This document shows, piece by piece, positions 3,979 through 39,259 of a stretch of 48,903 nt of DNA. Position numbers and translations under genes: made by a program. The DNA is from Candidatus Scatosoma sp. (GTDB lineage: Bacteria > Bacillota > Clostridia > Christensenellales > Borkfalkiaceae). The notes beneath the pieces were generated by a model. That model was not told the origin of the DNA. It saw nothing but the letters and a program-made list of their open reading frames with translations, and did not search any database. Position 1 is the stretch's first letter, and each line of letters starts with the position of its first letter. The stretch is from positions 1 through 48,903 of the forward strand of contig JAZTWL010000206.1 of the NCBI GenBank assembly GCA_045635845.1. Direction: 5' to 3'.

Positions 3979-4791
3979 ATGGGGGTGTGGCGTATGCGAA
4001 AAATAAAAAAACGGTATCTTTTTAGCCTACTTTCCGCTTTTTGCGCCGCCGTGATTGCCATTCTTTCTACGTGCGTATTTTGCATCGAAAAATACGGCGA
4101 AAATAGTAAAACGACGGGGGCAGGTACGAGTTTAAGCCGTTCTTTGCCCATCTATTCAGTGGAAACGGACGAGAAAAAAGTGGCGATTAGCTTCGATTGC
4201 GCGTGGGGTATAGACCACACCGACGCGCTCCTTGAAATCATGGAAAAAAACGAGATCCGCTGCACCTTTTTTGCCGTGCAGTTTTGGGTAGAGAAATACC
4301 CCGAGTACGCCAAAAAAATCGTGGATGCGGGGCACGAGCTCGGTACGCACAGTCGCACGCATCCTTATATGAGCAAGCTTTCCAAAGCGGAAATGGTGAG
4401 CGAGCTCACCACTTCGAGTGAAGCGATTGAGAAAATCACGGGCAAGAAGGTCACCCTTTTCCGCCCGCCCTACGGGGATTATAACAATCTATTGATCGAT
4501 ACTTGCGCAGAGCTTAATCTGTACCCGATTCAATGGGACGTCGATTCGTTGGATTGGAAAAATCTTTCGGGGACGGAGATTGCCATGCGGATCATCAACG
4601 GCGCGAAAAACGGCTCGATTATTCTTTGCCACAACAACGGTTTACACACGGCGGAGGCGTTGCCTATGATTTTTTCCACGCTTAAAAATCGGGGTTTTGA
4701 ATTCGTGCCGATTTCGGAGCTTATTTATAAGGACGGGTATTATATCGACCACACCGGCCGTCAGCGGCGAGCCGCCGCGGGCAAGCGGTGA
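3979..4791 (+). CDS. polysaccharide deacetylase (NodB homology domain) family protein with N-terminal TM/signal anchor
   Basis: Motifs FDCAWG..., HELGTHSRTHPYM, LFRPPYGDYN, ILCHNN. A start at ATG 3994 (MRKIKKRY) is equally possible. The last ~10 codons run into the tandem-repeat tract, so the true C-terminus is uncertain. Confidence 0.8.
   Translation: MGVWRMRKIKKRYLFSLLSAFCAAVIAILSTCVFCIEKYGENSKTTGAGTSLSRSLPIYSVETDEKKVAISFDCAWGIDHTDALLEIMEKNEIRCTFFAVQFWVEKYPEYAKKIVDAGHELGTHSRTHPYMSKLSKAEMVSELTTSSEAIEKITGKKVTLFRPPYGDYNNLLIDTCAELNLYPIQWDVDSLDWKNLSGTEIAMRIINGAKNGSIILCHNNGLHTAEALPMIFSTLKNRGFEFVPISELIYKDGYYIDHTGRQRRAAAGKR
4108..4135 (+). repeat. dispersed 28-nt repeat, copy A (type 2), inside the deacetylase CDS
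   Basis: AAAACGACGGGGGCAGGTACGAGTTTAA, translated as KTTGAGTSL. Confidence 0.6.
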
Positions 4792-4974
4792 GCCACCGCG
4801 GGCAAGTTGTAGCGTCTTTCCGCCCACTTTTAAGATAGCTCCGCGTCTGCTTCGAGTTGCGCGTACTAAACGAGTTTTTTAGGCGGTGAGCCACCACGCC
4901 CACTTGCAAGACAGCTACGCGTCTGCTTCGGGCGGCGCGTACCAAACGAGTTTTTCAAGCGGTTGGCTCTCACG
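4766..4974. repeat. tandem repeat tract: 2 x 21 bp (GGYGAGCCRCCGCGGGCAAGY) followed by 2 x ~76 bp imperfect units
   Basis: 21-mers at 4766-4786 and 4787-4807. The 76-bp units at 4823-4898 and 4899-4974 align at roughly 80% identity (CCCACTTNNAAGANAGCTNCGCGTCTGCTTCG...GCGCGTACNAAACGAGTTTTT...GGTNNGC). Confidence 0.85.
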
Positions 4975-5084
4975 GGTCAAGGGTGGAGCACCCTTGCGAA
5001 TTTTTAAGGCACAGCCTTAAAGCCCAACGGCAGTTGTCGCCCTATGGGCGAAACATAGCCCAACCATAAGCAAACGCAGTTTGC
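4961..5084. other. compact multi-hairpin domain (possible structured ncRNA or DNA-level palindromic element)
   Basis: Perfect stems: CAAGGGT-GGAGC-ACCCTTG (4978-4996), TTAAGGC-ACA-GCCTTAA (5004-5020), TCGCCC-TAT-GGGCGA (5037-5051). These are enclosed by GGTTGGCT (4961-4968) pairing with AGCCCAACC (5057-5065). A further hairpin, GCAAAC-GCA-GTTTGC, lies at 5070-5084. Confidence 0.5.
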
Positions 5085-5150
5085 GCCTTTCGCGTAGCGA
5101 TTCTCTTAATTTCATTTGTACAAAATCACTTTTGGAGGTATCAATATACT

Positions 5151-5852
5151 ATGAACTACGTAACGGAAAAAAACAACAAGGTTTACGTTATGGGCGAAAT
5201 CGTGAGCGACGCGAGCTTCTCTCACGAAGTGTACGGCGAAGGTTTCTACGAATTTTTCGTCAAGGTAATGCGGCTTTCGGGTCAAGCGGACGTTTTGCCC
5301 GTCACCGTTTCCGAGCGGCTCATTCAAGAGAGCATGCTCGCCAAGGGCAAGACGATTTGCGCGTTAGGACAATTCCGCAGCTACAACAAAATCGACAACG
5401 GAAAGTCTCGTCTTATGCTCACCATTTTCGTACGCGAGCTACTTCCCGAGCCGCCCGATAAAAACCCGAATAGCATTCTCTTAAGCGGCTACATTTGCAA
5501 ACCGCCCGTCTATCGCACCACCCCCTTCAATCGGGAAATTGCCGACGTGCTTATCGCGGTCAATCGCGCGTACAATAAATCCGATTATATCCCCTGTATT
5601 GCTTGGGGGCGCAACGCGCGCTTCGTGAAAAACCTTTCGGTGGGGGACAAAATCGCCATTTCGGGTAGAATCCAAAGCCGTGAATATCAAAAGAAACTCT
5701 CGGAAACGGATATCCGCACGATGACGGCATACGAGGTATCCGTATCCAAACTTGCCGCTTTTGACGCGAGTGAAGATTTTGATATCGATAGCGAATTCGA
5801 CTTATATTCCTTGCAAAGCAAGGATGAAACGCTTGCCGATTGCGGCAGCTAA
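5151..5852 (+). CDS. SSB-like protein with two tandem OB-fold halves and an acidic C-terminal region
   Basis: 233 aa. Two halves with similar OB-like patterning (VYVMGEIVSD...LGQFRSYN...LMLTIFV and ILLSGYICKP...ISGRIQSREY...AYEVSV). Acidic tail DASEDFDIDSEFDLY. GGAGG RBS. Confidence 0.55.
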   Translation: MNYVTEKNNKVYVMGEIVSDASFSHEVYGEGFYEFFVKVMRLSGQADVLPVTVSERLIQESMLAKGKTICALGQFRSYNKIDNGKSRLMLTIFVRELLPEPPDKNPNSILLSGYICKPPVYRTTPFNREIADVLIAVNRAYNKSDYIPCIAWGRNARFVKNLSVGDKIAISGRIQSREYQKKLSETDIRTMTAYEVSVSKLAAFDASEDFDIDSEFDLYSLQSKDETLADCGS

Positions 5853-5856
5853 ACTA

Positions 5857-5878
5857 GGCGGCGAAAGCCGCCTTTTTT
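5857..5878 (+). terminator. rho-independent terminator
   Basis: GGCGGC-GAAA-GCCGCC followed by T6. Confidence 0.75.
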
Positions 5879-5881
5879 CAT

Positions 5882-5909
5882 TTCAACGCGTACATGGTAT
5901 GCCCATTTT
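5882..5909 (-). repeat. dispersed 28-nt repeat, copy B (type 1), intergenic
   Basis: Top strand TTCAACGCGTACATGGTATGCCCATTTT, directly after the terminator. Confidence 0.8.
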
Positions 5910-5928
5910 ATCATTTTTTGCAAAAAAC

Positions 5929-5957
5929 TTGACAAGATCACAAAGATGCGTTATAAT
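5929..5957 (+). promoter_or_regulatory. sigma-A type promoter (TTGACA-17-TATAAT)
   Basis: TTGACA at 5929-5934 and TATAAT at 5952-5957, upstream of the DUF2779-like gene. Confidence 0.6.
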
Positions 5958-5980
5958 AAAAGCGAAGGAAGGTGAAGATT

Positions 5981-6697
5981 ATGGCTGTTTCCAAAACGGA
6001 TTTTGTTCGCGGTTTACAATGCAAAAAAATGCTGTGGTTGGACGCGCACGCGCCCGAACATAAGATTATTCCGCCCGAAGTGCAAGCTCGTCTTGACGCC
6101 GGCAACGAGTTTGGCGATCAAGCTATGGGCATTTTCGGAGATTTCGTGGAAACCACCACTTTCCGCGAAGACGGGCGGTTGGATTTTGCCGCTATGCTCG
6201 AAAAAACGCAAGCGCTCGTGCGCGAGGGCGCGCCCGTCATTTGCGAGGGCTCGTTCGCGTGGTACGGCAATTTTTGCGCCGCCGATATTTTGAAAAAGGA
6301 AGGCTCGGGATATGCCCTTTACGAAGTAAAGAACACCTATTTCCCCCGCCAAGAATTTATCACCGACCTTGGTTTTCAACGCCTTGTTTTGCGCAAATGC
6401 GGCGTCACTATTACGAGTTGTAATCTCGTTTTGCGCGGCGACGAACCGCCCGAAGGCGCAAAAGATACAGGTCTTGGCGAAGGGCAAACCCTTCTCGATC
6501 ACGGAGATTTCCGCTACAAGCTCGTCAACGTGAGTAAGGGCGCGCAAAAAGCGGATTTCATGGCAAGCAACTGCGTTTTCGATCTCGGAAAACTCAAAAA
6601 GAAGGAAGCTGCTATGCCCGAAATTGAAATGGGCGAGCATTGCGATTGTCCGTACAAGTGTTGGTATTACGATTATTGTTCCAACCAAAATAAATAA
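5981..6697 (+). CDS. PD-(D/E)XK (Cas4/RecB-like) nuclease family protein, DUF2779-like, with C-terminal Cys cluster
   Basis: N-terminus MAVSKTDFVRGLQCKKMLWL is typical of DUF2779. Core ...DILKKEGSGYALYEVKN... C-terminal CDCPYKCWYYDYC resembles a Cas4-type Fe-S cluster. The ATG at 5981 has a GGAAGG RBS. Confidence 0.65.
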   Translation: MAVSKTDFVRGLQCKKMLWLDAHAPEHKIIPPEVQARLDAGNEFGDQAMGIFGDFVETTTFREDGRLDFAAMLEKTQALVREGAPVICEGSFAWYGNFCAADILKKEGSGYALYEVKNTYFPRQEFITDLGFQRLVLRKCGVTITSCNLVLRGDEPPEGAKDTGLGEGQTLLDHGDFRYKLVNVSKGAQKADFMASNCVFDLGKLKKKEAAMPEIEMGEHCDCPYKCWYYDYCSNQNK

Positions 6698-6816: not shown

Positions 6817-7764
6817 ATGAACGAAGAAATTGAATACGCCGAAATGCTAGAAGTACCCGTTTCCACCGTCGAAGTCACGCGCAAAACGCGCCGCCGCAAG
6901 AAACGGGATAAAGAATACGACGCCGCCCCGCTTCCGCCTTTGAAGGAAGACTTGATCGCACAAATCAACAACCGTGTGCAAGAAGCGCCCGCGCAAGAGC
7001 CCGAGACGCCGCAAATCACCGCGGATGCAAACCTTTTCACGGAAGCGGTCAATAGCGAAGGGCAAATCGACTTTGAAACGCTCGATCGGATCGATACGAT
7101 CCCCTTATTTTCCACGCCGAAAAAACGGCGTTGGTGGAAACGCCCGCGCCTATCCCCAAAGGACTTTGCATTAGACGAAACGGAAAATGAAGGTACCATG
7201 TACGAGTTGAATATGGAAAACGCCTCTTCTCGCGCCGCAAAAATTACGCTTACGGCGGAGTTTGCGCTCGCTTGCGCTTTTTGCGCGGGGATCTTTTTAA
7301 CCAACGTCTTTATGCCAAATTCGGCTATCAATACCTTCTTCCGTGCTATGAGTGAGCCCATACCCAGCGCGAAGGTGGACGATCGCACTTACGCCGATTT
7401 CACCCTTTCGCCCGTGGTTTCCGTTCTTTCGGACGCCGAGCTTTCCCTTTCTTCGACGGGCATTCTCTCTTTCACGGACGCCTGCTGCGTTTATCCGTCC
7501 GCCGACGGTAAAATTGCGCAAGTGGAACACACGGGGGAAAACGGCTACGTTGTAAAAATCGAATATTCCGATTCCTTCACGAGCGTGATTAGCGGGCTTT
7601 CCGACGTCTATTATAACGTGGGGGATCAAGCATTTGCAAATATCCCCGTCGGCTACACGGACGGCACGGGGGAAGTGCAAATGACGATGTATTCGAACGG
7701 CGAACTTTTGAATTGCTTCGAATTGACGGAAGAAAACTGTCTTGCATGGCTTGAAACGGAATAA
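6817..7764 (+). CDS. membrane protein with degenerate LytM/M23-like C-terminal domain (SpoIVFA-like by position)
   Basis: Basic N-terminus, one TM segment (ITLTAEFALACAFCAGIFLTNVF), and a C-terminus GYVVKIEYSDSFTSVISGLSDVYYNVGDQAF lacking catalytic His residues. Lies directly upstream of the spoIVFB-like M50 protease. ATG 6817 has a GAAGGAG RBS. Confidence 0.5.
   Translation: MNEEIEYAEMLEVPVSTVEVTRKTRRRKKRDKEYDAAPLPPLKEDLIAQINNRVQEAPAQEPETPQITADANLFTEAVNSEGQIDFETLDRIDTIPLFSTPKKRRWWKRPRLSPKDFALDETENEGTMYELNMENASSRAAKITLTAEFALACAFCAGIFLTNVFMPNSAINTFFRAMSEPIPSAKVDDRTYADFTLSPVVSVLSDAELSLSSTGILSFTDACCVYPSADGKIAQVEHTGENGYVVKIEYSDSFTSVISGLSDVYYNVGDQAFANIPVGYTDGTGEVQMTMYSNGELLNCFELTEENCLAWLETE
7184..7211 (+). 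repeat. dispersed 28-nt repeat, copy C (hybrid type), inside the spoIVFA-like CDS
   Basis: AAAATGAAGGTACCATGTACGAGTTGAA, translated as ENEGTMYELN. Confidence 0.7.
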
Positions 7765-7768: not shown

Positions 7769-8716
7769 ATGCAAAAACGCAACACGGTGGAGCGGCGAAA
7801 ACGCCGCTCCACTTCTTTTTTACACACCAAACCGCTTTCCATTCGTCTGCACCCGCTCTTTCTTCTCGCGGGCGTTTGGTACGCCTTCAAGGGGGAGCTT
7901 TTTCTCTTTTTTATGAGTGCGCTCGTCGCCATTCAACACGAGTGTGCTCACGCCTTTGCTAGCGCAAAACTCGGCTATAAGCTCCACAAAATTGTGCTCA
8001 TGCCCTTTGGCGCAATCATCGACGGGGATTTGCAAGGCATTTCCTTCAAGGATGAGATCTTCGTCGCCCTTTGCGGCCCGCTTTGCAACCTTTGTACCGC
8101 CTTGTTTTTTGGCGCAATTTGGTGGTTTGTGCCTACCATGTACGCGTTCACGGACACTGCGTTCTATTCTTCCGTCGCAATTGCACTCGTGAATTTACTC
8201 CCCGCCTACCCCTTGGACGGGGGAAGAATTTTGCGTTGCGCGCTCACGCGCGCACTTCTAAAATCCCGCCCGCAAGCGGAAAAAGCGGAGCGAATTGCCG
8301 ATCGGATTTGTCGTATTCTCTCCCTTCTTTTTGCTTTCGCGCTTTTATCAATCTTCGTCGCGCAAGCCGTGAAGGGTACGCCGAATCTCACCCTACTCGC
8401 CTTTTCATTGTTTTTGGGCGTGGGGGCGGTTGGCAACAAAGATAAGCTTTCCGTCTACCGCAAAATCGATTTTTCCTTGCACCGACCCATGCAAAACGGC
8501 GTGGAAATCCGTCGCGTTGCGGTGCTCGATTCGTGCACGGTAAAAACGGCGCTACGTTTTATCACGAAGGGGGCGTATCTTGTTTTGGAAATCTACGACG
8601 AAGGGGAAAATAAGCTATTCGAACTCACCCAAAACGAGCTCGCCGCACTCGTCCTGCAATCCAAGACGCCCTACGAAACTTTACGTTCTCTTTGCGAAAA
8701 TTGCAAATTTTTATAA
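7769..8716 (+). CDS. spoIVFB: M50 site-2 protease, SpoIVFB-like
   Basis: HExxH (IQHECAHAF), NLLPAYPLDGGRIL motif, multiple TM segments, C-terminal CBS-like tail. The ATG at 7769 follows the upstream stop by 4 nt. Confidence 0.8.
   Translation: MQKRNTVERRKRRSTSFLHTKPLSIRLHPLFLLAGVWYAFKGELFLFFMSALVAIQHECAHAFASAKLGYKLHKIVLMPFGAIIDGDLQGISFKDEIFVALCGPLCNLCTALFFGAIWWFVPTMYAFTDTAFYSSVAIALVNLLPAYPLDGGRILRCALTRALLKSRPQAEKAERIADRICRILSLLFAFALLSIFVAQAVKGTPNLTLLAFSLFLGVGAVGNKDKLSVYRKIDFSLHRPMQNGVEIRRVAVLDSCTVKTALRFITKGAYLVLEIYDEGENKLFELTQNELAALVLQSKTPYETLRSLCENCKFL
8131..8150 (+). repeat. dispersed repeat, partial copy D, inside spoIVFB
   Basis: GCCTACCATGTACGCGTTCA (18/20 match to the consensus core), translated as VPTMYAFT. 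Confidence 0.5.
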
Positions 8717-10389: not shown

Positions 10390-10399
10390 ACAAACTCAA

Positions 10400-10426
10400 C
10401 CCGTCGCAAAACGCGACGGGTTTTTT
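10400..10426 (+). terminator. rho-independent terminator of rng
   Basis: CCCGTCGC-AAAAC-GCGACGGG followed by T6. Confidence 0.85.
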
Positions 10427-10429
10427 GGT

Positions 10430-10487
10430 AAAACGGGGCTACCATGTACGCGTTGAATAAAAATGGGGCTACCATGTACGCGTTGAA
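10430..10487 (+). repeat. two head-to-tail copies (E1, E2) of the dispersed repeat
   Basis: AAAACGGGGCTACCATGTACGCGTTGAA at 10430-10457, one T, then AAAAATGGGGCTACCATGTACGCGTTGAA at 10459-10487. Confidence 0.9.
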
Positions 10488-10524
10488 ATTCTTATTTTAT
10501 AAGCTTTTAGCAATCTTTTCCTTG

Positions 10525-10543
10525 CCCGCTTCGCGGGTTTTTT
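10525..10543 (+). terminator. second small terminator-like hairpin
   Basis: CCCGC-TTC-GCGGG followed by T6. Confidence 0.45.
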
Positions 10544-10555
10544 ATTGGAAAATGC

Positions 10556-10584
10556 TTTACAATACCCTTTCAATGTGATATAAT
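10556..10584 (+). promoter_or_regulatory. sigma-A type promoter (TTTACA-17-TATAAT, TG-extended)
   Basis: TTTACA at 10556-10561 and TGTGATATAAT ending at 10584, upstream of the Wzz-like gene. Confidence 0.5.
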
Positions 10585-12033: not shown

Positions 12034-12035
12034 TT

Positions 12036-15417: not shown

Positions 15418-15429
15418 ATTTTTTAATTA

Positions 15430-15445
15430 GGAGCTACCATGTACG
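15430..15445 (+). repeat. dispersed repeat, partial/degenerate copy F forming the engB translation start
   Basis: GGAGCTACCATGTACG versus consensus GGGGCTACCATGTACG. The embedded ATG (15439) is the engB start codon. Confidence 0.4.
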
Positions 15446-16104
15446 AAACGAAACGCGAAAATCAAGCGCCTGCACTGAAAATTAAAAACGCCACGTTCAT
15501 CACTTCGGCGGCGAAAAAGGAACAGTTTATCACACCCGATAAACCCATGATCGCCGTTTGCGGAAAATCGAACGTCGGCAAAAGCTCGTTTATCAATATG
15601 CTCGCCAACCAAAAGAAACTCGCAAAAACGAGTAGCGAGCCGGGTAGAACGCGGCTTGTAAACTATTTCGATTTCGGGGAATTTATTCTTGCCGACTTAC
15701 CCGGCTACGGCTTTGCAAGAGTATCGAAAGGCGAGAAGGAAAAGTGGGCGAAAACGCTCGATTCCTTCTTCAAGGATAAGGCACGTATCGCGCACGTATT
15801 CATGCTTGTGGATAGTCGTCACGATCCCACGGCGGACGACGTGCAAATGATTGAATTTTTGCACTACCACACCTTGCCGTTCACGGTTACGCTCACGAAA
15901 GCGGACAAGCTTTCCAAAATGAAATTGAAAGAGCATATCAAAGCGATTGCAGCGGACTTATATCTTGCCCCTGCGAATATGCTTGCCACGAGCTCGGAAA
16001 CGGGCTACGGCAAAGACGACGTTTTGAGAAAACTCCGCGAGATTATCGATCTCGCCAACGCCCCCATTGTGGAAATTGAAGAAGAAACGGAAGACGAAGA
16101 ATAA
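15439..16104 (+). CDS. engB: ribosome biogenesis GTP-binding protein YsxC/EngB
   Basis: G1 GKSNVGKSS, then DLPGYG and TKADK. The lon-ysxC adjacency matches Bacillus. Confidence 0.92.
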   Translation: MYETKRENQAPALKIKNATFITSAAKKEQFITPDKPMIAVCGKSNVGKSSFINMLANQKKLAKTSSEPGRTRLVNYFDFGEFILADLPGYGFARVSKGEKEKWAKTLDSFFKDKARIAHVFMLVDSRHDPTADDVQMIEFLHYHTLPFTVTLTKADKLSKMKLKEHIKAIAADLYLAPANMLATSSETGYGKDDVLRKLREIIDLANAPIVEIEEETEDEE

Positions 16105-26034: not shown

Positions 26035-26064
26035 TTCAATTCGTACACGGTACGCCCATTTTTT
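26035..26064 (-). repeat. dispersed repeat, copy K (type 1 variant), abutting the rsmG stop codon
   Basis: Top strand TTCAATTCGTACACGGTACGCCCATTTTTT. Confidence 0.7.
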
Positions 26065-26755: not shown

Positions 26756-26796
26756 AGTGTCACTATTATAGCACGATTCGAAAAGAAAAGCAACTT

Positions 26797-27105: not shown

Positions 27106-27169
27106 ACAGGAATCGGGAGTGGGTGAAGGAATTTTTTGGACTTTGGACAAAAAATATGGCAGTCCGCGC

Positions 27170-27197
27170 TTGACAAAACGCAAAGCTGTGCTATAAT
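27170..27197 (+). promoter_or_regulatory. sigma-A type promoter (TTGACA-16-TGc-TATAAT)
   Basis: TTGACA at 27170-27175 and TATAAT at 27192-27197, upstream of the SLOG gene. Confidence 0.6.
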
Positions 27198-27252
27198 AGG
27201 ACGTACGGAATTTCTTATAAATAAGAAAGCGCCAAAAAAAAGGAGGACGGGT

Positions 27253-27741: not shown

Positions 27742-27801
27742 AAAAGGTTGTGAAAAAAATAAAAAAATCCCTTAATTCAAAGGTTTTGCGCTCGTTTTTG
27801 C

Positions 27802-27830
27802 TTGCAAAAAAAAACGGCGTATGGTACAAT
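27802..27830 (+). promoter_or_regulatory. sigma-A type promoter for dnaN (TTGCAA-17-TGg-TACAAT)
   Basis: TTGCAA at 27802-27807 and TACAAT at 27825-27830. Confidence 0.55.
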
Positions 27831-27887
27831 GGATAGGAAACTAAACGGTTTTTCAATTTATTGAAAAAGCAAGGAGAGAAAAAGACT

Positions 27888-28997
27888 ATGAAATTTATTT
27901 GCGACGGTATGATTTTGGCGGATGCTTCTTTGACGGTAAGCAAGGCTTGCGCTGTTAGAACGACCACTCCTATTTTGGAATGCATCAAATTGAAAGCGGA
28001 AAACGACGGTCTTACGCTCACGGCGTACGACGGCGAAATTTCCATTGAAAAGAAGATTTTGGCGGACGTTTTGGAAGAAGGCGAACTTTGCGTTGCCGGC
28101 AAGACGTTTGCGGATTTCGTGAACAAAATTTCCGCATTCGAAGTGACGATTGCATCGGATGAAGCGGGTATCTTTATCCGTTATACGGATAGCGAAACGT
28201 ATATGCAAACCCTTTCCGCGGAAGATTACCCCAAATTCAACGTTTCGGATAATGCGGACAAGGACTACTTCACGATGAAGGAAAACGTACTTAAGGATAT
28301 CATTTCCAAGATCGTATTCTGCTGTGCGACGGATGAATCCCGTCCCATCTTGAAAGGCGCGCTTTTGGAAACGAAGAGCGGCAAACTCAACGTAGTTGCT
28401 TTGGATGGCGTGAGAATGGCTTGCGCGACCTGCGATATTGAAGAAAGCAGCGTGGATATGAAGATCGTATGCCCCGCAAGAACGCTTACGGAAATTTCCC
28501 GTATGCTTGACGGCGAAAACGACATTAAAATTTACGCGAGCAAGAATATGCTTTCCGTAGAAGTGCAAAACACGGTAATCAATTCCCGTTTGTACGCAGG
28601 CGAATTCGTAAAGAAGGAAAATATTTTCCCGATCGACTTCACGACGAAAGTGATTTTGAATAGAGCGGACGTGATCGAAAGTTTGGAACGTGCTTCCGTC
28701 ATGATTAGAACGGATAAAAATAATCTCGTATTGCTTGATATCAAACCCGGCAAGATCGTACTCACGGCAAACTCGGGTATGGGCAAGGTAGAAGAAACGA
28801 TTTCCGCGGAGCTTGACGGTAAGGAATTGAAGATTGCTATGAACGGTAAATTCTTGCTTGACGCAGTGAAAGCGCTCGAAGAAGAACAAGTGATTGCATC
28901 CTTCAATACGTCCGTTTCCCCCTTCACGCTTGAAAACATGGAGGACAAGGCTTGTCAATATTTGATTTTGCCTATGAGAACGAGAGCGGTAGAGTAA
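27888..28997 (+). CDS. dnaN: DNA polymerase III beta sliding clamp
   Basis: MKFICDGMILADASLTVSKA...PILECIKLKAENDGLTLTAYDGEISIE, with three-domain clamp length. AAGGAGAG RBS. Confidence 0.96.
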   Translation: MKFICDGMILADASLTVSKACAVRTTTPILECIKLKAENDGLTLTAYDGEISIEKKILADVLEEGELCVAGKTFADFVNKISAFEVTIASDEAGIFIRYTDSETYMQTLSAEDYPKFNVSDNADKDYFTMKENVLKDIISKIVFCCATDESRPILKGALLETKSGKLNVVALDGVRMACATCDIEESSVDMKIVCPARTLTEISRMLDGENDIKIYASKNMLSVEVQNTVINSRLYAGEFVKKENIFPIDFTTKVILNRADVIESLERASVMIRTDKNNLVLLDIKPGKIVLTANSGMGKVEETISAELDGKELKIAMNGKFLLDAVKALEEEQVIASFNTSVSPFTLENMEDKACQYLILPMRTRAVE

Positions 28998-29060
28998 GAA
29001 AAAAAACGCCAAAAAAGGGATAAAAACGCGTGGTAAACGAGAAAAACGGCGTGAAAACGC

Positions 29061-29090
29061 TTGACGGACTTCGTCGCTATGCGGTATAAT
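29061..29090 (+). promoter_or_regulatory. sigma-A type promoter for rpmH (TTGACG-18-TATAAT)
   Basis: TTGACG at 29061-29066 and TATAAT at 29085-29090. Confidence 0.6.
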
Positions 29091-29169
29091 ATGAAAGTTG
29101 TCCGCGCTGAAAGCGTGGCGGCGCATAAATAACGAAAAAAAAGATAAAAAACCATATAGGAGAAAAATC

Positions 29170-29304
29170 ATGAAAAGAACCTATCAACCCAAAAAGAGAC
29201 AAAGAAGCAAAGTACACGGTTTCCGTAAGAGAATGGCAACGACGGCTGGCAGAAAGGTGCTTAAGAGACGTAGAGCAAAAGGCCGTAAGAGACTTACGCA
29301 CTAA
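29170..29304 (+). CDS. rpmH: 50S ribosomal protein L34
   Basis: [44 protein letters not shown]. Confidence 0.97.
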
Positions 29305-29413
29305 TTAACTGAAAATAAAAAGTACAAATTCCTTTCCTTGGCATCAAGGAGAGGATTTGCCATTTTTTTATGACCGTAGGGATTTTGGAAACAAAAGCTC
29401 TCAAAGAGAAAAA

Positions 29414-29731
29414 ATGAAGTATTTAAGATTAAAAAAACAAGCGGATTTTCAAAGACTTTTCAAAAACGGAAAGCGCGCGTTTACCCCTTCTTTGACCGTA
29501 ATCTACCGTCCATCCGATAAGATGCGAATGGGAATTTCTATCGGGAAGAAGCATGGCAAAAGCGTGCAGAGAAACCGTATCAAAAGATTGATCCGAGAAG
29601 CCTTCCGTTTGACACAAGGAGAAATGAAGGGCGCGTATTCCTTCTTGCTCATTCCAAAGGTGAGCGAAGAATACTCTTTCAAAACCTTTCAATCGCAACT
29701 TCAATGGATGATTCGAAAAGAGAAGCTGTAA
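29414..29731 (+). CDS. rnpA: ribonuclease P protein component
   Basis: MKYLRLKKQADFQRLFKNGKR...GKKHGKSVQRNRIKRLIREAFR. Confidence 0.9.
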   Translation: MKYLRLKKQADFQRLFKNGKRAFTPSLTVIYRPSDKMRMGISIGKKHGKSVQRNRIKRLIREAFRLTQGEMKGAYSFLLIPKVSEEYSFKTFQSQLQWMIRKEKL

Positions 29732-29757
29732 GCGGATATTTCGCGGGGCTTTGCCGC

Positions 29758-30030
29758 GTGAATTTTAAGTATCTTCGCAAGATTATTTTTAAGCCGTACT
29801 TGAAAATAATTTGTATGCGAATGATCCGCTTTTATCAAAAGTATATTTCCAAAAATACTTGCAAATACGTTCCTTCTTGTTCGCAGTACACGATGGAATG
29901 TATCAATAATAAAGGGGTAATTCTAGGCATTTTGCTTGGCGCTTGGCGCATTTTACGGTGCAATCCTTTATCCAAAGGCGGGTACGATCCCGCGCCTTTG
30001 CCCTATTTCAAAAAAAGATGGCTTTTGTGA
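29758..30030 (+). CDS. yidD: membrane protein insertion efficiency factor YidD
   Basis: IRFYQKYIS...CKYVPSCSQYTMECI...LGAWRILRCNPLSKGGYDP. The start is ambiguous: GTG 29758 or ATG 29815. Confidence 0.85.
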   Translation: MNFKYLRKIIFKPYLKIICMRMIRFYQKYISKNTCKYVPSCSQYTMECINNKGVILGILLGAWRILRCNPLSKGGYDPAPLPYFKKRWLL

Positions 30031-30087
30031 TTTGACAAAGATAATAACCGCGTGAAAAACGCAAAAAATATAGTTTAGGAAAGTGGC

Positions 30088-31635
30088 GTGCGAGTTCTCG
30101 TGCGCTCAATTGAAAAAATGGGAAGTTTAAATATTCAAGACGTCTTTCTTCCCCTTTACGGGCAAACGTTTGACGTTTCATTGAACTGGATAGGCAACTT
30201 AATTCGCATACTCATTAGCGGAGTAGGCGTAGTTGGTGTGGGCGTTATTCTGTTCTCTTTGATTTTGAAGGGTATTACCCTTCCCCTTGATATTTATCAA
30301 AGAGTTTCCATGCGTAAACAAAACAACCGCATGAAAGAAAACAAAGACAGAATGGAAAAATTAAAGAAGCAATACGCGAACGACGAAAAGCTCTATAACC
30401 AAAAGGTTATGGAAATGCAACGCGAAGGCGGTTTTTCCGTGCTCTCCGCGTGCTTGCCTATGATCGTTTCGTTGATTATCTTTATCGTTGCGATTAACGC
30501 ATTTAACGCATACGCACAGTATTCCAACGTAAAAAATTATAACACGCTCGTGAACGCGTATAACGAACAATTCTACGAATACACGCCTGAATTCACGGAA
30601 GATACTTTCGAAATTACCAAACAAGAAACGAAGTATGATGCAGACAACGTCGTAGAAGAAATCACGGTAGAATTCAAGGTTTCCGACGACGTTGCGGATA
30701 ACTATATCTACTACACGGGCTCGTACACGGTAGAAAAAGAAGACGTTGCAAAATATGAAGCTTTAATGAGCGACGCTGAAACGGCTTTTGAAACGCAAAA
30801 ATCGTACGTAGAGCTTGCAAGAAAAATGTACTTTGCGGACGTAGAAAAAATCAAAAACTGCACGGATTCGGAAATGATCGCGCAAATTAACGCGCATTAC
30901 GACGAGCTTGCAAATGCGGATTTGACGAACGACGCTAAAATGGAAAATGCAATCCGTAACTATTTCCGTGCGCAAGCGCAAAAGGCCGTAAAAGTAGCGT
31001 ACCAAACGAAGGTTTCCAAGGATACGAAGTTCCTTTGGATTAAGAATATTTGGTCGGTTGACGCAAGCTATAAGCACCCCGTATTAAGTTATTCCGCTTT
31101 CAAATCCGAAGCAAAGCAAGAAAAGTTTAAGGTGGAAGGTGAAGGCAAGGTTTCCTACGGGAATATCGATACCTACACCGACGCATACAAGGAAGAAGCG
31201 TATAACGATATCACGAAAGAATTATCCACGTATAAGAAGCAACCGAACGGTTATTTTATCATGATCGCCCTTTCGATCGGTACGATTTTGCTTCAACAAG
31301 TGGTGATGCAACATTCGCAAAAGGAACAACAAAAATACCAAACGGTGGACGGTCAAGGTAAGGGCCAAGGCAAAATGATGATGATCATTATGACGGGTAT
31401 GTTCGCGATCTTCTCGTTCATGTACAGCTCGGCATTCTCGATCTACATGATCACGAGCAACTTGTTCTCCATGATATCGACTTTGGTAATCAATTTCTTC
31501 GTAGATAGAAGCGCATCGAAGAAGGAAGCGCTTGCAACGGAAAAGCGTTTTGCAAACACGGCGATCGATAGAGTAGAAAAGGCAAAACAAGCAGGTATTG
31601 CATCTGCGGATAAGAAACGTAATAAGAATAAATAA
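30088..31635 (+). CDS. yidC: YidC/Oxa1-family membrane insertase with a large internal insertion
   Basis: Conserved TM1 with KGITLPLDIYQRVSMRK, coiled coil, GGFSVLSACLPMIVSLIIF, and the C-terminal TM bundle MMIIMTGMFAIFSFMYSSAFSIYMITSNLFSMIST. About 240 extra residues lie between TM2 and TM3. The GTG 30088 start has an AGGAAAG SD; ATG 30118 is an alternative. Confidence 0.8.
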   Translation: MRVLVRSIEKMGSLNIQDVFLPLYGQTFDVSLNWIGNLIRILISGVGVVGVGVILFSLILKGITLPLDIYQRVSMRKQNNRMKENKDRMEKLKKQYANDEKLYNQKVMEMQREGGFSVLSACLPMIVSLIIFIVAINAFNAYAQYSNVKNYNTLVNAYNEQFYEYTPEFTEDTFEITKQETKYDADNVVEEITVEFKVSDDVADNYIYYTGSYTVEKEDVAKYEALMSDAETAFETQKSYVELARKMYFADVEKIKNCTDSEMIAQINAHYDELANADLTNDAKMENAIRNYFRAQAQKAVKVAYQTKVSKDTKFLWIKNIWSVDASYKHPVLSYSAFKSEAKQEKFKVEGEGKVSYGNIDTYTDAYKEEAYNDITKELSTYKKQPNGYFIMIALSIGTILLQQVVMQHSQKEQQKYQTVDGQGKGQGKMMMIIMTGMFAIFSFMYSSAFSIYMITSNLFSMISTLVINFFVDRSASKKEALATEKRFANTAIDRVEKAKQAGIASADKKRNKNK

Positions 31636-31679
31636 GAGAGAATTGCGCCACGCGTAGGCGCGGACGTAGGAGTAAAATA

Positions 31680-32615
31680 ATGAATTACACGGAATTTACG
31701 GGAAAGACGGTGGCGGAAGCCATTGAAAAGGGCTTGAAAGAGCTTGGAATCACCGAAGAACAAGCGGATATCCGCGTTTTGGAAGAAGGCAAGAAAAAGC
31801 TTTTCGGTTCGGTGAAAGCGCGCGTTGAAATCGCTGCAAAATGCGAAGAATGCGCAAAGGAAGAATGCGTAGAAGAAAAGTGCTGCCCCGCTGTTTGCTG
31901 CAACGGTACGGACGGCGAAAGAACGGTGGCGTTCTTGGAAGGTTTGTTCGAGCTCTTGAATATCAAGGCTTGCACGGAGCTTGTTTCGGAAGGCGAAAAG
32001 ATTGAAATCAACGTGACGACGGCAAATACGACGTCGGTTATCGGTAAAAAAGGCGCAACGCTTGATGCAATTCAAACGCTTGCAAGCGCTGTTGGCAACA
32101 CGGGCAGAGACGATTACAAGCGCGTAGTGGTTGACTGCGACAACTATCGTGAAAGCCGTGAAAACACGTTGAACAAGCTTGCGGAAAACTTGGCGCAAAA
32201 AGCAATTCGTATGGGCAAGAAGATTATGCTTGAACCCATGAATCCTTACGAAAGAAGAATTATTCACGCGGCTCTTTCCGAAAGAGAAGGTATTTCCACG
32301 GAAAGCGAAGGCAAAGAACCGAACCGCTATTTCGTGATTATTCCCGATAATTTGGAAGATCCCGATGCACCCGCAATTCCTGCAAGAAACGATCGTGAAC
32401 GTCGCGGCGGTAGAAACGATAGATCGCACGGCCGTGGCGGCAAGGGCGGTTTTAACCGCGGTAGCAACGGCAAACGCGGTGGTTTCGGCGGTAAAAAGCC
32501 TTACAACCGTGATAGAAAGCCCGCAACCGGCGCAACCGGTGGCACGTCCTTGAAGACGTCGAATGATTTCTTCGGTATCTTCCTTGGCAACAGCGGAAAT
32601 AACAGCGAAGAATAA
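31680..32615 (+). CDS. khpB: RNA-binding protein Jag/KhpB (Jag_N, KH, R3H) with a Cys-rich insert and an RGG-rich tail
   Basis: N-terminus MNYTEFTGKTVAEAIEKGLKELGI. KH IGKKGATLDAIQ. R3H MNPYERRIIHAAL. Confidence 0.85.
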   Translation: MNYTEFTGKTVAEAIEKGLKELGITEEQADIRVLEEGKKKLFGSVKARVEIAAKCEECAKEECVEEKCCPAVCCNGTDGERTVAFLEGLFELLNIKACTELVSEGEKIEINVTTANTTSVIGKKGATLDAIQTLASAVGNTGRDDYKRVVVDCDNYRESRENTLNKLAENLAQKAIRMGKKIMLEPMNPYERRIIHAALSEREGISTESEGKEPNRYFVIIPDNLEDPDAPAIPARNDRERRGGRNDRSHGRGGKGGFNRGSNGKRGGFGGKKPYNRDRKPATGATGGTSLKTSNDFFGIFLGNSGNNSEE

Positions 32616-32683: not shown

Positions 32684-33211
32684 TTATTGCAAAAAGCGGA
32701 CGTTGCGCTGAATACGTTTTAACGAGAAATACGTAGGCACGCCGAGTGCGTACACCCAAACGCATTCCGTTAAGGCAAGCGAGCCAACAAAAGCGAAATA
32801 CGCCGTCCAAACACTAGAATAACCCGCGCCGCCATCACAAAGAAAGACGATAATAAAAGGGATAAAAAGCGAGTTAAAAAGTACGGGGAAAAATCCGCCA
32901 AGCCCCACTTTTAACGGCTCGTTTTTAATTTTTCTGCCTACCATGTACGTAGCGAGCGCGGCAAACAGCGTTGCAAGCGAGCCGATAAAGACGTCGTACA
33001 CAAGATAGGGCGAAGCCAAATTCGAAAGCATACACCCCACGTACAGCGCGGGCACGGCTTCTACGTAAAGTAGAGGCAAAATACAAAGCGCCTCTGCCGG
33101 TCGGATTTGAAAAGGGCCGAAGGCAAAGGGCGTGAATGCATAGGTGAACGCGACGTAAAGCGCGGCAATAATACCCGCGCGGCAAAGCCGCTTCGTAGTG
33201 ACGTTTTTCAT
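32684..33211 (-). CDS. queT: QueT-family queuosine-precursor transporter (ECF S-component-like)
   Basis: Starts at MKNVTTKRLCRAGIIAALYVAFTYAFTPFAFGPFQIRPAEAL. Five or six TM segments. The upstream part of the track ORF is leader sequence. Confidence 0.75.
   Translation of the reverse strand: MKNVTTKRLCRAGIIAALYVAFTYAFTPFAFGPFQIRPAEALCILPLLYVEAVPALYVGCMLSNLASPYLVYDVFIGSLATLFAALATYMVGRKIKNEPLKVGLGGFFPVLFNSLFIPFIIVFLCDGGAGYSSVWTAYFAFVGSLALTECVWVYALGVPTYFSLKRIQRNVRFLQ
32936..32949 (+). repeat. dispersed repeat, partial core only (copy L), antisense inside queT
   Basis: GCCTACCATGTACG, a 14-mer identical to copy D. Confidence 0.35.
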
Positions 33212-33318
33212 AAAATTGTACCTCGGTTTTTTTATTTGCCGACTTTCTCGGCATGGGAAGTGTTTTCCGAAAACCTTCCAACGGAGTATAGTATAGCACT
33301 TTCGGCGGGGTTTGTCAA
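33212..33318 (-). promoter_or_regulatory. queT promoter (TTGACA-17-TATACT) and ~70-nt structured leader; candidate preQ1-type riboswitch, class not verifiable
   Basis: Reverse strand has TTGACA (33313-33318) and TATACT (33290-33295). The leader contains GGAAGGTTTTC/GAAAACACTTCC and GCCGA-GAAAG-TCGGC hairpins, then AAATAAAAAAACCGAGG (an A-rich tail running into the SD). Confidence 0.3.
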
Positions 33319-33323
33319 TGCTT

Positions 33324-33980
33324 TTACGCGCCCTGTCGCTTTTTTGAGCAACGTTCCCAAAGCAGGGCGGCAATTCCGTCCGAAAGGATTTCCGCCATGG
33401 TATAGACCAAATTTAGACGGGTGCTATTCAAGAGTCCGTAATTCGCCACTGATTTTTCCGCCACGATCCCGAGCGCGGAAACGTCCCCGAGCGCACCGAG
33501 TTTTTTTTGCGCACCTGCGCCCGGTTTTAGCGGGGAATCGGAAAGCTTTATCAAGCCGATATCCCCTTCTTCCCCAACGGCGGCGTCCACGGTGAGCACT
33601 TGACTTTCGGTGTGGGTATCCCGCAAAAGCGCGCGCACGTACTTAATCTCTTTGGCGGTGACGGGGGATGCGAGTGTGCCGTAGATAAAAACGTTCAAGC
33701 CCTGCGTTTTATAGCGGAGCATAGAGCCGGTGATCGGCCCAAGACTATCCCCGATCACGAGATCACTACCCACACAAACAATCACGGGTGGAGCGTCGAA
33801 AAGAGGGTGATTTTGCGGTGAACTCGTACATGCCCCCTTCATTTTTTGTGTTTTGCGGTAAAAATCGCGTTTTAAGAGTCGGTCAAGAGATAGAGAAACG
33901 CCGTCGGCGGCGAGTTTATTAAAGACGTGAAAAGCATAATCCATAGTGGGATAAGTATTGCCGAAAGGGGCGTTTTTCAA
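33324..33980 (-). CDS. yyaC: spore protease YyaC (DUF1256, GPR/HybD-like)
   Basis: VIVCVGSDLVIGDSLGPITG...VLTVDAAVGEEGDIGLIKLSDSPLKPGAG. The start is uncertain: TTG 33980, ATG 33944, or the ATG inside repeat copy M. Confidence 0.8.
   Translation of the reverse strand: MKNAPFGNTYPTMDYAFHVFNKLAADGVSLSLDRLLKRDFYRKTQKMKGACTSSPQNHPLFDAPPVIVCVGSDLVIGDSLGPITGSMLRYKTQGLNVFIYGTLASPVTAKEIKYVRALLRDTHTESQVLTVDAAVGEEGDIGLIKLSDSPLKPGAGAQKKLGALGDVSALGIVAEKSVANYGLLNSTRLNLVYTMAEILSDGIAALLWERCSKKRQGA
33819..33845 (-). repeat. dispersed repeat, copy M (type 2), inside the yyaC 5' region
   Basis: Top strand TGAACTCGTACATGCCCCCTTCATTTT, translated as KMKGACTSS. Confidence 0.65.
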
Positions 33981-37746: not shown

Positions 37747-37770
37747 GATAAAAATTCCTTAAGTTTTTAA

Positions 37771-37798
37771 TTCAACGCGTACATGGTGGGTGTATTTT
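37771..37798 (-). repeat. dispersed 28-nt repeat, copy N (type 1 variant), between gerAA stop and gerAB start
   Basis: Top strand TTCAACGCGTACATGGTGGGTGTATTTT, abutting the gerAA TAG. Confidence 0.8.
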
Positions 37799-39259
37799 CT
37801 ATTTTTCCTTCAAACGGGTGTAGTTTTTTGATTGTAAAACGGATGGGCGTTTATCTAAATCAGACATGTCATATTTTACGATTGTATCTCGCAAATCGTG
37901 TGTTTTTAAGGGGGAGAAGGGCGCAAGTAAAGGCGCGCCGAAGCTATCTGCTGTGATAAGGTAATATAATAGAAAAGTGAGTAAAAGGACGATGCCGAAC
38001 GGGCCGATGCTCCCCGCAACGAGCAGGAAAAGCCAACGGAGTACGCCGCCCGTTTCCACGAAGGAAGGAACGGTGTACAAACAAATACCCGAGAAGGCGA
38101 CGATAATGATAGCGGGGGTAGAAAGGAAACCCGCGGAAACCGCCGTTTCGCCGAGTACGAGCGCGCCGACGACGGAAAGACTCATGCCGACGTATTTCGG
38201 CATACGCACACTCGCTTCTTTTAGCACTTCGAGCAAAAATAGCACGACGAACATTTCCAAATTCGGGGAAAGGGGCAATTCGCGGACGCTGCTTGCGATT
38301 GTGAGCATTAATCCGAGTGGCAAAAGCTGCATTTTGAAAAGCTGTGCCGAGACGTAAAACGCGGGCAAAAGAATCGCGACGAATAAGGCAAGTAGGCGCA
38401 AAAAGCGGAAAGTCGTGGAAACGAAGGGGGAATGGAAATAGTCTTCGCTGCTTTGTAAGCCTTCCGTTAAAAGGTAGGGGGCGGTGAGTGCAATCGGCGA
38501 ACCGTCCACCAAAATCCCCACCCTGCCTTCCATGATTTTTGCGCAAAAAATATCCGGCTTTTCCGTCGTGCCGAGCGTATGGAAAAGGGAATGCTTGCGC
38601 TCGGAAATTAGCGCGGAAATATAGGAAGAATCGGGGAGATAATCGACGTCGATTTTTTGAATGCGCGCCTTAATCTCGTCAAGCACGTCTTCGTTGCTCG
38701 TTCCCGACAAATAACAAAGCGTAACGGCGGTATCCGAGCGACGGCCAACCCGCATGGTTTCAAAACGCAGCTCGGGGGTTTTGAGTCGTTTACGAACGAG
38801 CGACATGTTCGTTTTAATATCTTCGATAAAGCCTTCTCTCGGGCCTTTCACGGCAATATCTGTCGGCGGCTCGGCAACAGAGCGGACGGGCAAAAGCTTT
38901 GCGCCCACGATAAAGCCCGTGGAGAGTTCGTCCACGAGTAAAAGACTATTTCCGTCCAAGATTTCCTTAATGGAATCCGCAATTTTTTCCACCGTTTTTA
39001 ATTCGGGAAAAAGCAGGGATTTTTTCAAGTTTTCTTCATTCAACGCGTACCTGCCCCCGTCATTTTTTGCAAAAAGTCGGGAAAGGGGGCGGGCAATAAG
39101 GTCACCGAGTACTTCTTTATTCACCACCCCGTCGGCATAGACGATCGCGCACGAAACGCCGTCTTCCGTTTGGAAGTCGTAGGTTAAAACGTCTTCGGAA
39201 GGAAGGAGTTTTTTGAGTTCCGTCAAATTTTTTTGTAAGCTTTTAGAGAAAACGTTCAC
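37799..39259 (-). CDS. GerAA-family spore germination protein
   Basis: 486 aa. VRSVAEPPTDIAVKGPREGFIEDIKTNMSLVRKRL is the hallmark GerA motif. C-terminal TM bundle. Confidence 0.9.
   Translation of the reverse strand: MNVFSKSLQKNLTELKKLLPSEDVLTYDFQTEDGVSCAIVYADGVVNKEVLGDLIARPLSRLFAKNDGGRYALNEENLKKSLLFPELKTVEKIADSIKEILDGNSLLLVDELSTGFIVGAKLLPVRSVAEPPTDIAVKGPREGFIEDIKTNMSLVRKRLKTPELRFETMRVGRRSDTAVTLCYLSGTSNEDVLDEIKARIQKIDVDYLPDSSYISALISERKHSLFHTLGTTEKPDIFCAKIMEGRVGILVDGSPIALTAPYLLTEGLQSSEDYFHSPFVSTTFRFLRLLALFVAILLPAFYVSAQLFKMQLLPLGLMLTIASSVRELPLSPNLEMFVVLFLLEVLKEASVRMPKYVGMSLSVVGALVLGETAVSAGFLSTPAIIIVAFSGICLYTVPSFVETGGVLRWLFLLVAGSIGPFGIVLLLTFLLYYLITADSFGAPLLAPFSPLKTHDLRDTIVKYDMSDLDKRPSVLQSKNYTRLKEK
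39039..39066 (-). repeat. dispersed 28-nt repeat, copy O (type 2), inside gerAA
   Basis: Top strand TTCAACGCGTACCTGCCCCCGTCATTTT, translated as KNDGGRYALNE. Confidence 0.8.

Follow-up and report, generated by a model that had tools for sequence, protein, structure and literature searches.

A 29-nt Word at the Center of Phased A/T Tracts in Candidatus Scatosoma: A Candidate DNA-Architecture Site of Gut Clostridia

Introduction

What role can be assigned to a short, nearly invariant word that recurs along an ordinary bacterial chromosome, between genes as well as inside them? The question is raised by contig JAZTWL010000206.1 of the assembly GCA_045635845.1, from Candidatus Scatosoma sp. (Clostridia, Christensenellales, Borkfalkiaceae). 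The whole stretch analyzed, positions 1 to 48,903 of the forward strand, is called the window below. It contains a dispersed 29-mer, and averaging over the copies places them at the center of helically phased A/T tracts, which extend ~100 bp in each direction. The word is 19–29 bases long and occurs about once per gene in this uncultured lineage of gut Clostridia. The 29-mer is here read, with a probability of about 50%, as the recognition core of a ~200-bp DNA-architecture or DNA-topology site kept by selection in one Clostridia lineage. It looks like an undescribed docking site for a putative chromosome-bending or chromosome-wrapping protein.

The repeat had been noticed in a previous reading of the window, designated as the sequence-only reading. 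Its description of the repeat core stands, while the strands of the copies, three coding copies, the conservation in many species, the depletion between divergent genes and the ~200 bp phased domain were overlooked. Among the roles that it offered, a protein-recognition or architecture signal is now favored, the footprints or targets of a mobile system are argued against, and an RNA role is weakened.

Identification and Anatomy of the Repeat

The pattern AAAAT-N12-GTACGMGTTGAA with up to 2 mismatches matched the window 10 times against 0.05 expected, and 0 of 100 shuffles reached 10. The 3′ dodecamer GTACGCGTTGAA with up to 1 mismatch matched 11 times against 0.44 expected. The frequency is thus far above chance.

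Copies in the window were located by fuzzy search and by profile search with nhmmer. The profile search recognized ~19 credible copies, which are spread over both strands and confined to 4.1–39.1 kb; about half of the window copies are contained in genes. The 13 full-length starts and 3 partial cores reported previously are all present; those at 4107, 7183, 8123, 10429, 10459, 15424, 20138 and 32928 are on the plus strand, and those at 5882, 21525, 22432, 23969, 26035, 33818, 37771 and 39039 are on the minus strand. Three coding copies on the minus strand (16375–16403, 17379–17407 and 25006–25034) were added by the profile search. No credible copy was found in the outer 13.9 kb, at 1–4.1 kb or at 39.1–48.9 kb (P ~0.002 under a uniform distribution); the latter segment had already been reported to be empty. 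The spacing is over-dispersed, with 1 gap shorter than 880 bp, that of a tandem pair, against 6.3 expected (P = 0.0008). Apart from this pair, no sites are nearer each other than 890 bp, and the gaps range from 0.9 to 6.9 kb. Identical 29–30-mers are found at distant sites, such as 10459 and 22432.

The anatomy of the repeat was obtained from the alignment of 107 copies. The nearly invariant core consists of 15 positions, C-A-K-G-T-A-Y-G-C-G-W-T-G-A-A, and is asymmetric. It is preceded by CTAC in type 1 or GGGG in type 2, with some intermediates; the resulting centers CTACCAT and GGGGCAG are the two alternatives recognized earlier, to which the occasional intermediates are added. Farther 5′, there are 3–4 G/C bases, either G or C; AAAAY (−16 to −12) and an A/T tract (−24 to −20) come next. 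On the 3′ side of the core, positions +16 to +20 form an A5 tract. In half of the tandem pairs, the copies are 30–32 nt apart, arranged head-to-tail and abutting without a spacer. This abutment and the dispersal at 0.9–6.9 kb agree with the earlier statement that the repeat is not a CRISPR.

No dyad symmetry was found in the repeat. RNAalifold on 20 copies returned 0 pairs and no covariation, and the DNA folds of the copies have z-scores of −0.15 to −0.74, without any significant fold. As previously stated, the repeat is not a palindrome of the type of repetitive extragenic palindromic (REP) sequences and bacterial interspersed mosaic elements (BIMEs). There is no Rfam match to the repeat, and nothing relevant was found in the literature on the repeat sequence or on uptake signals in Clostridia, consistent with the earlier statement that no described family in Firmicutes was known with this sequence.

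Two loci outside the window show special arrangements of the repeat. At positions 3610–3690 of locus L053, the tail-to-tail overlap of two type-2 copies gives a near-perfect hairpin with a 12-bp stem followed by a T-run, so that the two copies jointly make a terminator; two more copies follow. At 5700–5830 and 7820–7960 of locus L012, a set of three copies in the order of type 1, type 2 and type 1 comes after each of two small paralogous genes, which end in C(V/A)DEL. The metagenome-assembled genome (MAG) of L012 mostly uses the core variant GCGATGAA.

Phased A/T Tracts around the Core

In the averaged flanks, AT peaks were observed at −92, −81, −69, −57, −45, −33, −22 and −14, and at +10, +18, +30, +42, +53, +64, +74 and +89, relative to the G of GTACGCG. 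The AT content varies from ~0.38 to 0.75. Fitting gave a period of 11.6 bp (bootstrap confidence interval (CI) 11.45–11.75), and the pattern is mirror-symmetric about −2.0 (CI −2.2 to −1.8), which corresponds to the CATG of the core. A link to SASP-bound spore DNA, with a possible helical repeat near 11.6 bp, was considered and set aside, as one literature search did not settle this value.

The Fourier power at ~11.5 bp is 0.20/0.22, against a maximum of 0.024/0.044 in 300 random-anchor sets and 0.004/0.011 at anchors consisting of pairs of A-tracts without the core. A genome-wide periodicity of ~11 bp is present, and it is far too weak to yield the phasing of the flanks. The window copies alone (n = 18) show a power of 0.27/0.31 against a null 95th percentile of 0.08, a level reached by 0 of 500 random sets. 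The phasing was replicated with 29 copies from independent metagenome contigs. Terminator hairpins were considered as the origin of the A/T periodicity and rejected, as the lax hairpin count is near random and the periodicity is seen in coding flanks and to ~100 bp.

The phasing is equally strong at coding (n = 40) and intergenic (n = 56) copies. Inside genes, the AT content of peaks exceeds that of troughs by 0.216 at third, 0.162 at first and 0.078 at second codon positions, compared with 0.192 in non-coding DNA. This ordering indicates selection on DNA rather than on protein, acting within the limits set by the protein.

Copies in the Window and Their Placement Relative to Genes

The window copies and their settings are as follows (E is the profile E-value).

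3990–39190, no strand: zone containing all copies and their phased A/T flanks, with ~200 bp of A/T tracts around copies
4107–4135, plus: type-2 copy TAAAACGACGGGGGCAGGTACGAGTTTAA inside the polysaccharide-deacetylase gene; E 0.006
5882–5910, minus: type-1 copy between the terminator 5856–5873 and a perfect TTGACA-17-TATAAT promoter at 5929–5957; antisense to both flanking genes
7183–7211, plus: copy read in the ATG frame in the linker of the spoIVFA-like gene, peptide ENEGTMYELN; same place in L019 and L032
8123–8151, plus: partial copy CCTACCATGTACGCGTTC inside spoIVFB, encoding PTMYAF; conserved in 3 species
10429–10487, plus: tandem pair of type-1 copies, 30 nt apart, after the RNase G terminator 10398–10422 and before a promoter-like site at 10556–10584
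15424–15452, plus: partial copy GGAGCTACCATGTACGAA overlapping the ribosome-binding site and start codon of engB
16375–16403, minus: type-2 copy inside rqcH, peptide QGGQVCDEL
17379–17407, minus: weak type-2 copy inside rqcH, peptide PFDGAGMRS; E 0.49
20138–20166, plus: type-2 copy between clpP and clpX, 13 nt past the stop codon of the former and 72 nt short of the start of the latter; unchanged in L074–L077
21525–21553, minus: degenerate copy overlapping the EamA stop codon, followed by a bidirectional terminator, in the convergent region with clpX
22432–22460, minus: perfect type-1 copy whose in-frame ATG, at the 5′ end of the EamA gene, is the probable start codon
23969–23997, minus: type-2 copy between the terminator 23943–23958 and the promoter-like site of holB at 24044–24072; antisense to both genes
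25006–25034, minus: type-2 copy at the 3′ end of holB, antisense inside the gene; E 0.014
26035–26063, minus: type-1 copy starting at the gidB stop codon, followed by the terminator 26028–25997
32928–32956, plus: partial core GCCTACCATGTACG 3′ of jag, lying within the open reading frame of queT and antisense to it; E 0.4
33818–33846, minus: type-2/intermediate copy GGGGGCATGTACGAGTTCAC at the 5′ end of the DUF1256/yyaC-like gene
37771–37799, minus: type-1 copy filling the gerAA–gerAB intercistronic gap, its first base being the last base of the gerAA TAG stop codon
39039–39067, minus: type-2 copy in frame inside gerAA, peptide KNDGGRYALNE

The terminators 5856–5873, 10398–10422, 23943–23958 and 25997–26028 next to copies, and the stop codons overlapped by the copies at 21525, 26035 and 37771, bear out what the sequence-only reading had said of these sites. 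Three intergenic regions (5856–5957, 10398–10584 and 23943–24072) share the order of gene end, terminator, motif, sigma-70-like promoter and next gene, with the motif in either orientation; their promoters match the consensus at 12/12, 11/12 and 10/12 positions, respectively. In the copy at 4107, a change from TTGAA to TTTAA removes an in-frame TGA from the polysaccharide-deacetylase gene.

The placement was further analyzed for 138 copies from the window and from loci gathered around exact matches, so that densities and class frequencies are not those of an unbiased genome-wide sample. Genes were called by the author on the basis of codon usage, and the calls reproduce the Pfam-supported genes of the window. 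Intergenic copies account for 97 of the 138, though 84% of the DNA is coding, which corresponds to a 12-fold enrichment; the other 41 (~30%) are inside called genes. Among intergenic regions of at least 60 nt, copies occupy 45% of the convergent, 29% of the co-directional and 6% of the divergent regions, and the divergent regions are the longest. Copies are thus ~10-fold depleted between divergent genes and enriched at gene 3′ ends and between convergent genes. In co-directional regions, they are nearer to the 3′ end of the upstream gene. The upstream stop codon is overlapped by 15 of the 42 co-oriented intergenic copies, via TAA or TGA in the A-rich 5′ part, and 8 of the 42 supply a candidate start codon. 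The distance from copy to next start codon ranges from −13 to ~390 nt. A terminator-like hairpin, on one side or the other, is found within 60 nt of about 40% of the intergenic copies. In the window, the orientation follows the gene strand (15:4) and not the replichore (9:10, for this one window and a presumed origin near 27 kb); a replichore-oriented word is not indicated by this window, in which the orientation tracks gene strand and not GC skew.

Distribution among Species and Conservation

The exact 19-mer CTACCATGTACGCGTTGAA was found at 55 loci in a collection of species-representative genomes. Nearly all of them are MAGs from animal guts named Candidatus Scatosoma or "Clostridia bacterium", and the word is common to about 20 MAG species. 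The same 19-mer was found in 20 metagenome contigs. Synteny with the window is limited to 4 of the 55 loci, so that these genomes carry the word at dispersed positions.

Some copies are retained at orthologous positions between species whose proteins are 50–65% identical, and perfect antisense copies are conserved in four species. A comparison of orthologous loci had been proposed in the sequence-only reading; it revealed that copies are kept in spoIVFA, spoIVFB and gerAA, while the gidB 3′ copy is missing at the orthologous site of L012. The copy in the spoIVFA linker is retained in three species, and the linker around it varies in sequence and length. In spoIVFB, most synonymous sites of the copy are kept in 3 species (with one TAC/TAT difference), and the neighboring codons vary more. 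The L019 orthologue of the intergenic region at 10429–10487 contains two copies as well. Upstream of holB, copies are present in 3 species (the window, L012 and L032), with differences in number and orientation.

Among the copies that could be checked, those in coding regions are overlaid on the genes with little or no change in length, not inserted into them. At both rqcH copies, the encoded protein and Bacillus subtilis RqcH differ locally in length by 2 residues only. In the L019 orthologue of the gene at 5972–6697, a copy is contained in a segment of equal length where the window sequence differs. The GerA Pfam match is colinear, with residues 19–473 aligned to profile positions 8–465. The peptide KNDGGRYALNE is recognizable in most of 120 GerAA homologues (73–94% identity), and a few homologues carry deletions of 4–8 residues exactly at the motif.

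The strain relatives L074–L077 (96.5–99.5% identity) cover only the copies at 20138 and 21525. Both are unchanged, with no presence/absence differences, and the comparison is therefore uninformative on the origin of copies. Between the window and L074 and L075, strains at 96.5% identity to it, the loop of the clpX/EamA bidirectional terminator (~21490–21515) is flipped (TTT vs. AAA), and its stem and the adjoining motif copy are unchanged.

A Proposed DNA-Architecture Site

The phasing, which is symmetric over ~200 bp and extends into synonymous sites, the overlay on coding sequences, the conservation between species and the tolerance to changes of orientation within one intergenic region together indicate that selection acts on double-stranded DNA structure. 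The region upstream of holB, where copies are kept in three species despite the changes in their number and orientation, is in keeping with a role of the DNA itself. The sites avoid divergent regions and are located at gene ends and between convergent genes, which matches the sites at which positive supercoils accumulate and the locations of REP/BIME sequences.

These features suggest the following mechanism. A sequence-specific protein or complex would dock on the core, and the phased arms would then take a right-handed superhelical path, either as a wrap similar to that of type II topoisomerases or as the two arms of a pinned negative plectoneme. A sequence period above the helical repeat of B-DNA is usually read as a fit to negative supercoiling. 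The right-handed path, as a positive wrap or as negative-plectoneme arms, is suggested from the geometry of DNA, since the period exceeds the B-DNA helical repeat. Because the sites are found mainly at gene ends, terminators and convergent regions, at least ~0.9 kb apart, they may handle or insulate the supercoiling generated by transcription between neighboring transcription units. Enterobacterial BIME-2 binds gyrase, and BIME-1 binds IHF; the sites described here would be a hard-wired counterpart of BIME-2 and of strong gyrase sites.

Within the class of DNA-architecture sites, the most concrete candidate is a strong type II topoisomerase site; alternatively, a bending protein with sequence specificity could pin a plectoneme there. 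The gyrase motif has the cleavage site as its center of symmetry, and periodic flanks surround its central part of ~36 bp; BIME-2 and the regions downstream of transcription units are enriched in it (PMC6379681, PMC12630141, PMC12324340). Its periodic A/T–G/C arms are read as DNA wrapping (PMC6379681, PMC12324340, PMC12630141). The preferences of the cleavage domain include the universal −4G/−2A/+1G/+4C and the palindromic −4G/+8C, −2A/+6T and +1G/+4C (PMC12324340). The E. coli Topo-Seq motif and the strong gyrase site of phage Mu resemble the sites in the window in the symmetric center, the block of ~30–36 bp, the periodic arms and the concentration of activity downstream of transcription units. 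The AT amplitude is far larger here than in the gyrase motif.

Several observations weigh against an architecture site, and in particular against a topoisomerase site. Gyrase motifs are degenerate and palindromic, whereas the core is asymmetric and nearly invariant over 15–19 bp, and it is far more specific than any known preference of a type II topoisomerase. The period is 11.6 bp instead of the 10–11 bp of gyrases, and the arms are ~100 bp on each side instead of ~65 bp (130 bp in total). If GTAC is taken as the cleaved tetrad, only the left half fits −4G (in type 2)/−2A/+1G/+4C; the right half has C and T where +6T and +8C are expected for gyrase, and the tetrad center is 3.5 bp from the center of symmetry. 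When orthologues and tandems are collapsed, 77% of clusters are co-oriented with transcription (28:11 in intergenic and 21:4 in coding regions), and coding copies prefer the frame of the motif ATG (22/33). A function of symmetric DNA alone predicts neither bias. Both may reflect the fit of the A-rich strand of the motif to purine-rich coding strands. The gathering of loci around exact matches, noted above, adds to these reservations. The core, the phasing, the distribution and selection at the level of DNA are shown by the data, whereas the docking protein is putative and the topological role of the site is inferred.

A more specific version is possible, at a tentative level: the copies would be supercoil-positioning elements, about one per gene, at which a lineage-specific protein nucleates a right-handed superhelix of ~200 bp, as a wrapped particle or the tip of a pinned plectoneme.

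Alternative Explanations

In kind, the family belongs to the dispersed protein-recognition words, such as REP/BIME sequences, strong gyrase sites, the uptake signal sequences (USS) of Pasteurellaceae and the DNA uptake sequences (DUS) of Neisseriaceae, and it departs from defining features of each.

The USS and DUS lead to the first alternative, in which the competence machinery prefers the word, and biased uptake and recombination have spread it by point mutation. This is unlikely, even though the resemblance is broad. The word is highly over-represented and lineage-specific, its positions are conserved between species, and, as in USS, A/T tracts flank the core. Coding copies are overlaid without matching indels, mostly in poorly conserved protein segments and with a bias in reading frame. 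There are apparent dialects, such as GCGATGAA common in one MAG; an inverted pair forms a terminator, as in L053; and the spacing is more even than random. Nevertheless, symmetric phasing over ~100 bp into synonymous sites is not described for USS/DUS and would be hard for an uptake drive to produce. USS/DUS show no orientation preference and are used evenly in coding and intergenic DNA, whereas the repeat is enriched 12-fold in intergenic regions, biased to 3′ ends, depleted 10-fold between divergent genes, and oriented with genes in 77% of clusters. The repeat is much longer than USS/DUS and, with 15 nearly invariant positions, much richer in information. It is found in a Gram-positive spore former; Firmicutes are not known to have any uptake specificity, and no paper on it was found, which counts against this alternative.

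An RNA-level element is similarly improbable. The repeat could be a portable cassette for translation (re)initiation or coupling, in which a stop codon in TAAAAT and a Shine–Dalgarno-like G-run are followed by AUG or UUG, or it could be bound at gene boundaries by a nuclease or an RNA-binding protein. The co-orientation and the preference for the ATG frame would be expected from such an element, as would the overlaps with upstream stop codons (15/42) and candidate start codons (8/42), and several genes plausibly start at the motif ATG or TTG, including engB and EamA in the window. The mycobacterial interspersed repetitive units (MIRUs) are comparable in being intergenic, co-oriented with flanking genes and often tandem, with ends overlapping stop or start codons. 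MIRUs are 40–100 bp tandem repeats within operons and have conserved small open reading frames (ORFs), whereas the copies here are found also antisense to genes and deep inside them, and their small ORFs are not conserved. A conserved small ORF starting at the motif ATG (MYALN/MYALK) was rejected, as ORF lengths are geometric, indicating the absence of a conserved peptide product, and the stop positions likewise lack conservation. At the RNA level, there is no rationale for a mirror-symmetric phasing in double-stranded DNA that is strongest at third codon positions. The conservation of perfect antisense copies in four species also speaks against an RNA element. No consensus structure, covariation, significant fold or Rfam match was found for the repeat. 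The supposed Shine–Dalgarno G-run is equally often a C-run, type 2 has no ATG, and the next start codon is at a variable distance.

It is still less probable that the repeat is a miniature mobile or REP-like selfish element, copied to gene ends by a transposase or recombinase acting in trans. Identical 29–30-mers far apart, head-to-tail arrays at 30–32 nt, copies adjoining terminators, and an intergenic region that differs in copy number and orientation between species could be so explained, as could the few GerAA homologues with deletions exactly at the motif. REP/BIME sequences are likewise a high-copy dispersed family at 3′ ends and convergent regions, essentially absent from divergent regions, with clusters or arrays in variable orientation and a plausible link to supercoiling. 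In contrast to the repeat, REPs are imperfect palindromes that form hairpins; they are extragenic, while 30% of copies here are inside genes; and phased flanks have not been described for them. An association with REP-associated tyrosine transposases (RAYTs) is not known for the repeat. There are no terminal inverted repeats or target-site duplications, and coding copies have no matching indels, which supports the earlier conclusion that the repeat is not a miniature inverted-repeat transposable element (MITE). A 30-bp insertion cannot create 200 bp of phased flanks inside genes, and orthologous positions persist at 50–65% protein identity. The window has no transposase gene among its Pfam-based assignments, and the strain relatives show no presence/absence differences at the two covered copies, 20138 and 21525. 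A phage, plasmid or other mobile origin was rejected, since IMG/VR viral contigs gave only chance or unrelated coding matches for a 16-mer and none for the type-2 17-mer.

The repeat is very improbable as an operator of a global or sporulation regulator or as a promoter, whether for an alternative sigma factor or for another polymerase: sporulation genes are nearby (spoIVFA/FB, gerA, yyaC-like, deacetylase), the motif opens with a TAAAAT-like hexamer and many copies lie upstream of co-oriented genes, yet copies are depleted 10-fold in divergent (promoter-only) regions, enriched in convergent ones and often deep inside or antisense to genes, the position profile shows neither a −35 nor an extended −10 element conserved at a constant distance, the start-codon distance is not fixed, and separate sigma-70-like promoters adjoin three window copies. 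Consensus sequences for sigma-70, extended −10, sigma-54, sigma-H, sigma-D, extracytoplasmic function (ECF) sigma factors, sigma-I and the sporulation sigma factors were compared, and rejected because there is no consistent second element and the distribution is wrong.

Other known features were compared with the repeat. The genome-wide ~11-bp A/T periodicity and A-tract clusters similarly have a period exceeding the B-DNA helical repeat, whereas the phasing here is locked to the word and an order of magnitude above what background autocorrelation yields. Chi and KOPS (FtsK-orienting polar sequences) are replication-oriented words of 5–8 nt, as opposed to 15–29 nt. The 3′ ends of tRNAs, att sites and T-boxes were rejected, as the flanks do not fit and there is no Rfam match, and so was a hub of restriction sites (CATG, GTAC, ACGCGT), as these words are not avoided elsewhere in the genome.

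Genomic Context of the Window

Pfam assignments revealed that the window is ordinary chromosome of a spore-forming member of Clostridia. It encodes polysaccharide deacetylase, spoIVFA/spoIVFB-like proteins, RNase G, Lon, EngB, RqcH, trigger factor, ClpP, ClpX and L27, as well as holB, gidB, dnaN, rpmH, rnpA, yidC, jag, queT and the gerA operon. The gene order at 26063–32615 is gidB (minus strand), a YpsA/SLOG gene, dnaN, rpmH, rnpA, yidC and jag, and dnaA is not beside dnaN. The replication-type GC skew flips its sign near 26–27 kb. The window is probably origin-proximal, in which case most genes at 4–21 kb would be head-on to replication.

Just 3′ of the polysaccharide-deacetylase gene, at 4821–4972, there is a tandem of two 76-nt units with 80% identity to each other. 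An SSB-domain protein encoded at 5151–5852 has an N-terminal extension of ~100 residues, and the 241-residue protein encoded 3′ of it (5972–6697) has no Pfam match and a cysteine-rich C-terminus. Upstream of the QueT transporter gene (32684–33373), there is no preQ1 riboswitch or other Rfam match. In the window and loci L001–L097, CCGG, GGCC and CTAG occur at only 0.18–0.24 of the Markov expectation, which suggests restriction avoidance in the lineage.

Implications

Even if the word had a role in uptake or at the RNA level, no description was found of a word with at least 15 invariant bases locked to 200 bp of phased A-tracts. If the copies were supercoil-positioning elements, they would be a bacterial counterpart of nucleosome-positioning sequences and would split the chromosome into gene-sized topological units, under selection strong enough to reshape synonymous sites and loop residues of housekeeping genes.

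If the interpretation as a DNA-architecture site is correct, these bacteria carry a sequence-specific signal of chromosome architecture about once per gene, which visibly constrains synonymous sites and would thus be a new source of selection on codon choice. The word would be a sharp genomic marker for an uncultured lineage of gut Clostridia, and it would provide a testable handle on how topoisomerases, nucleoid proteins or plectonemes are placed along bacterial chromosomes.

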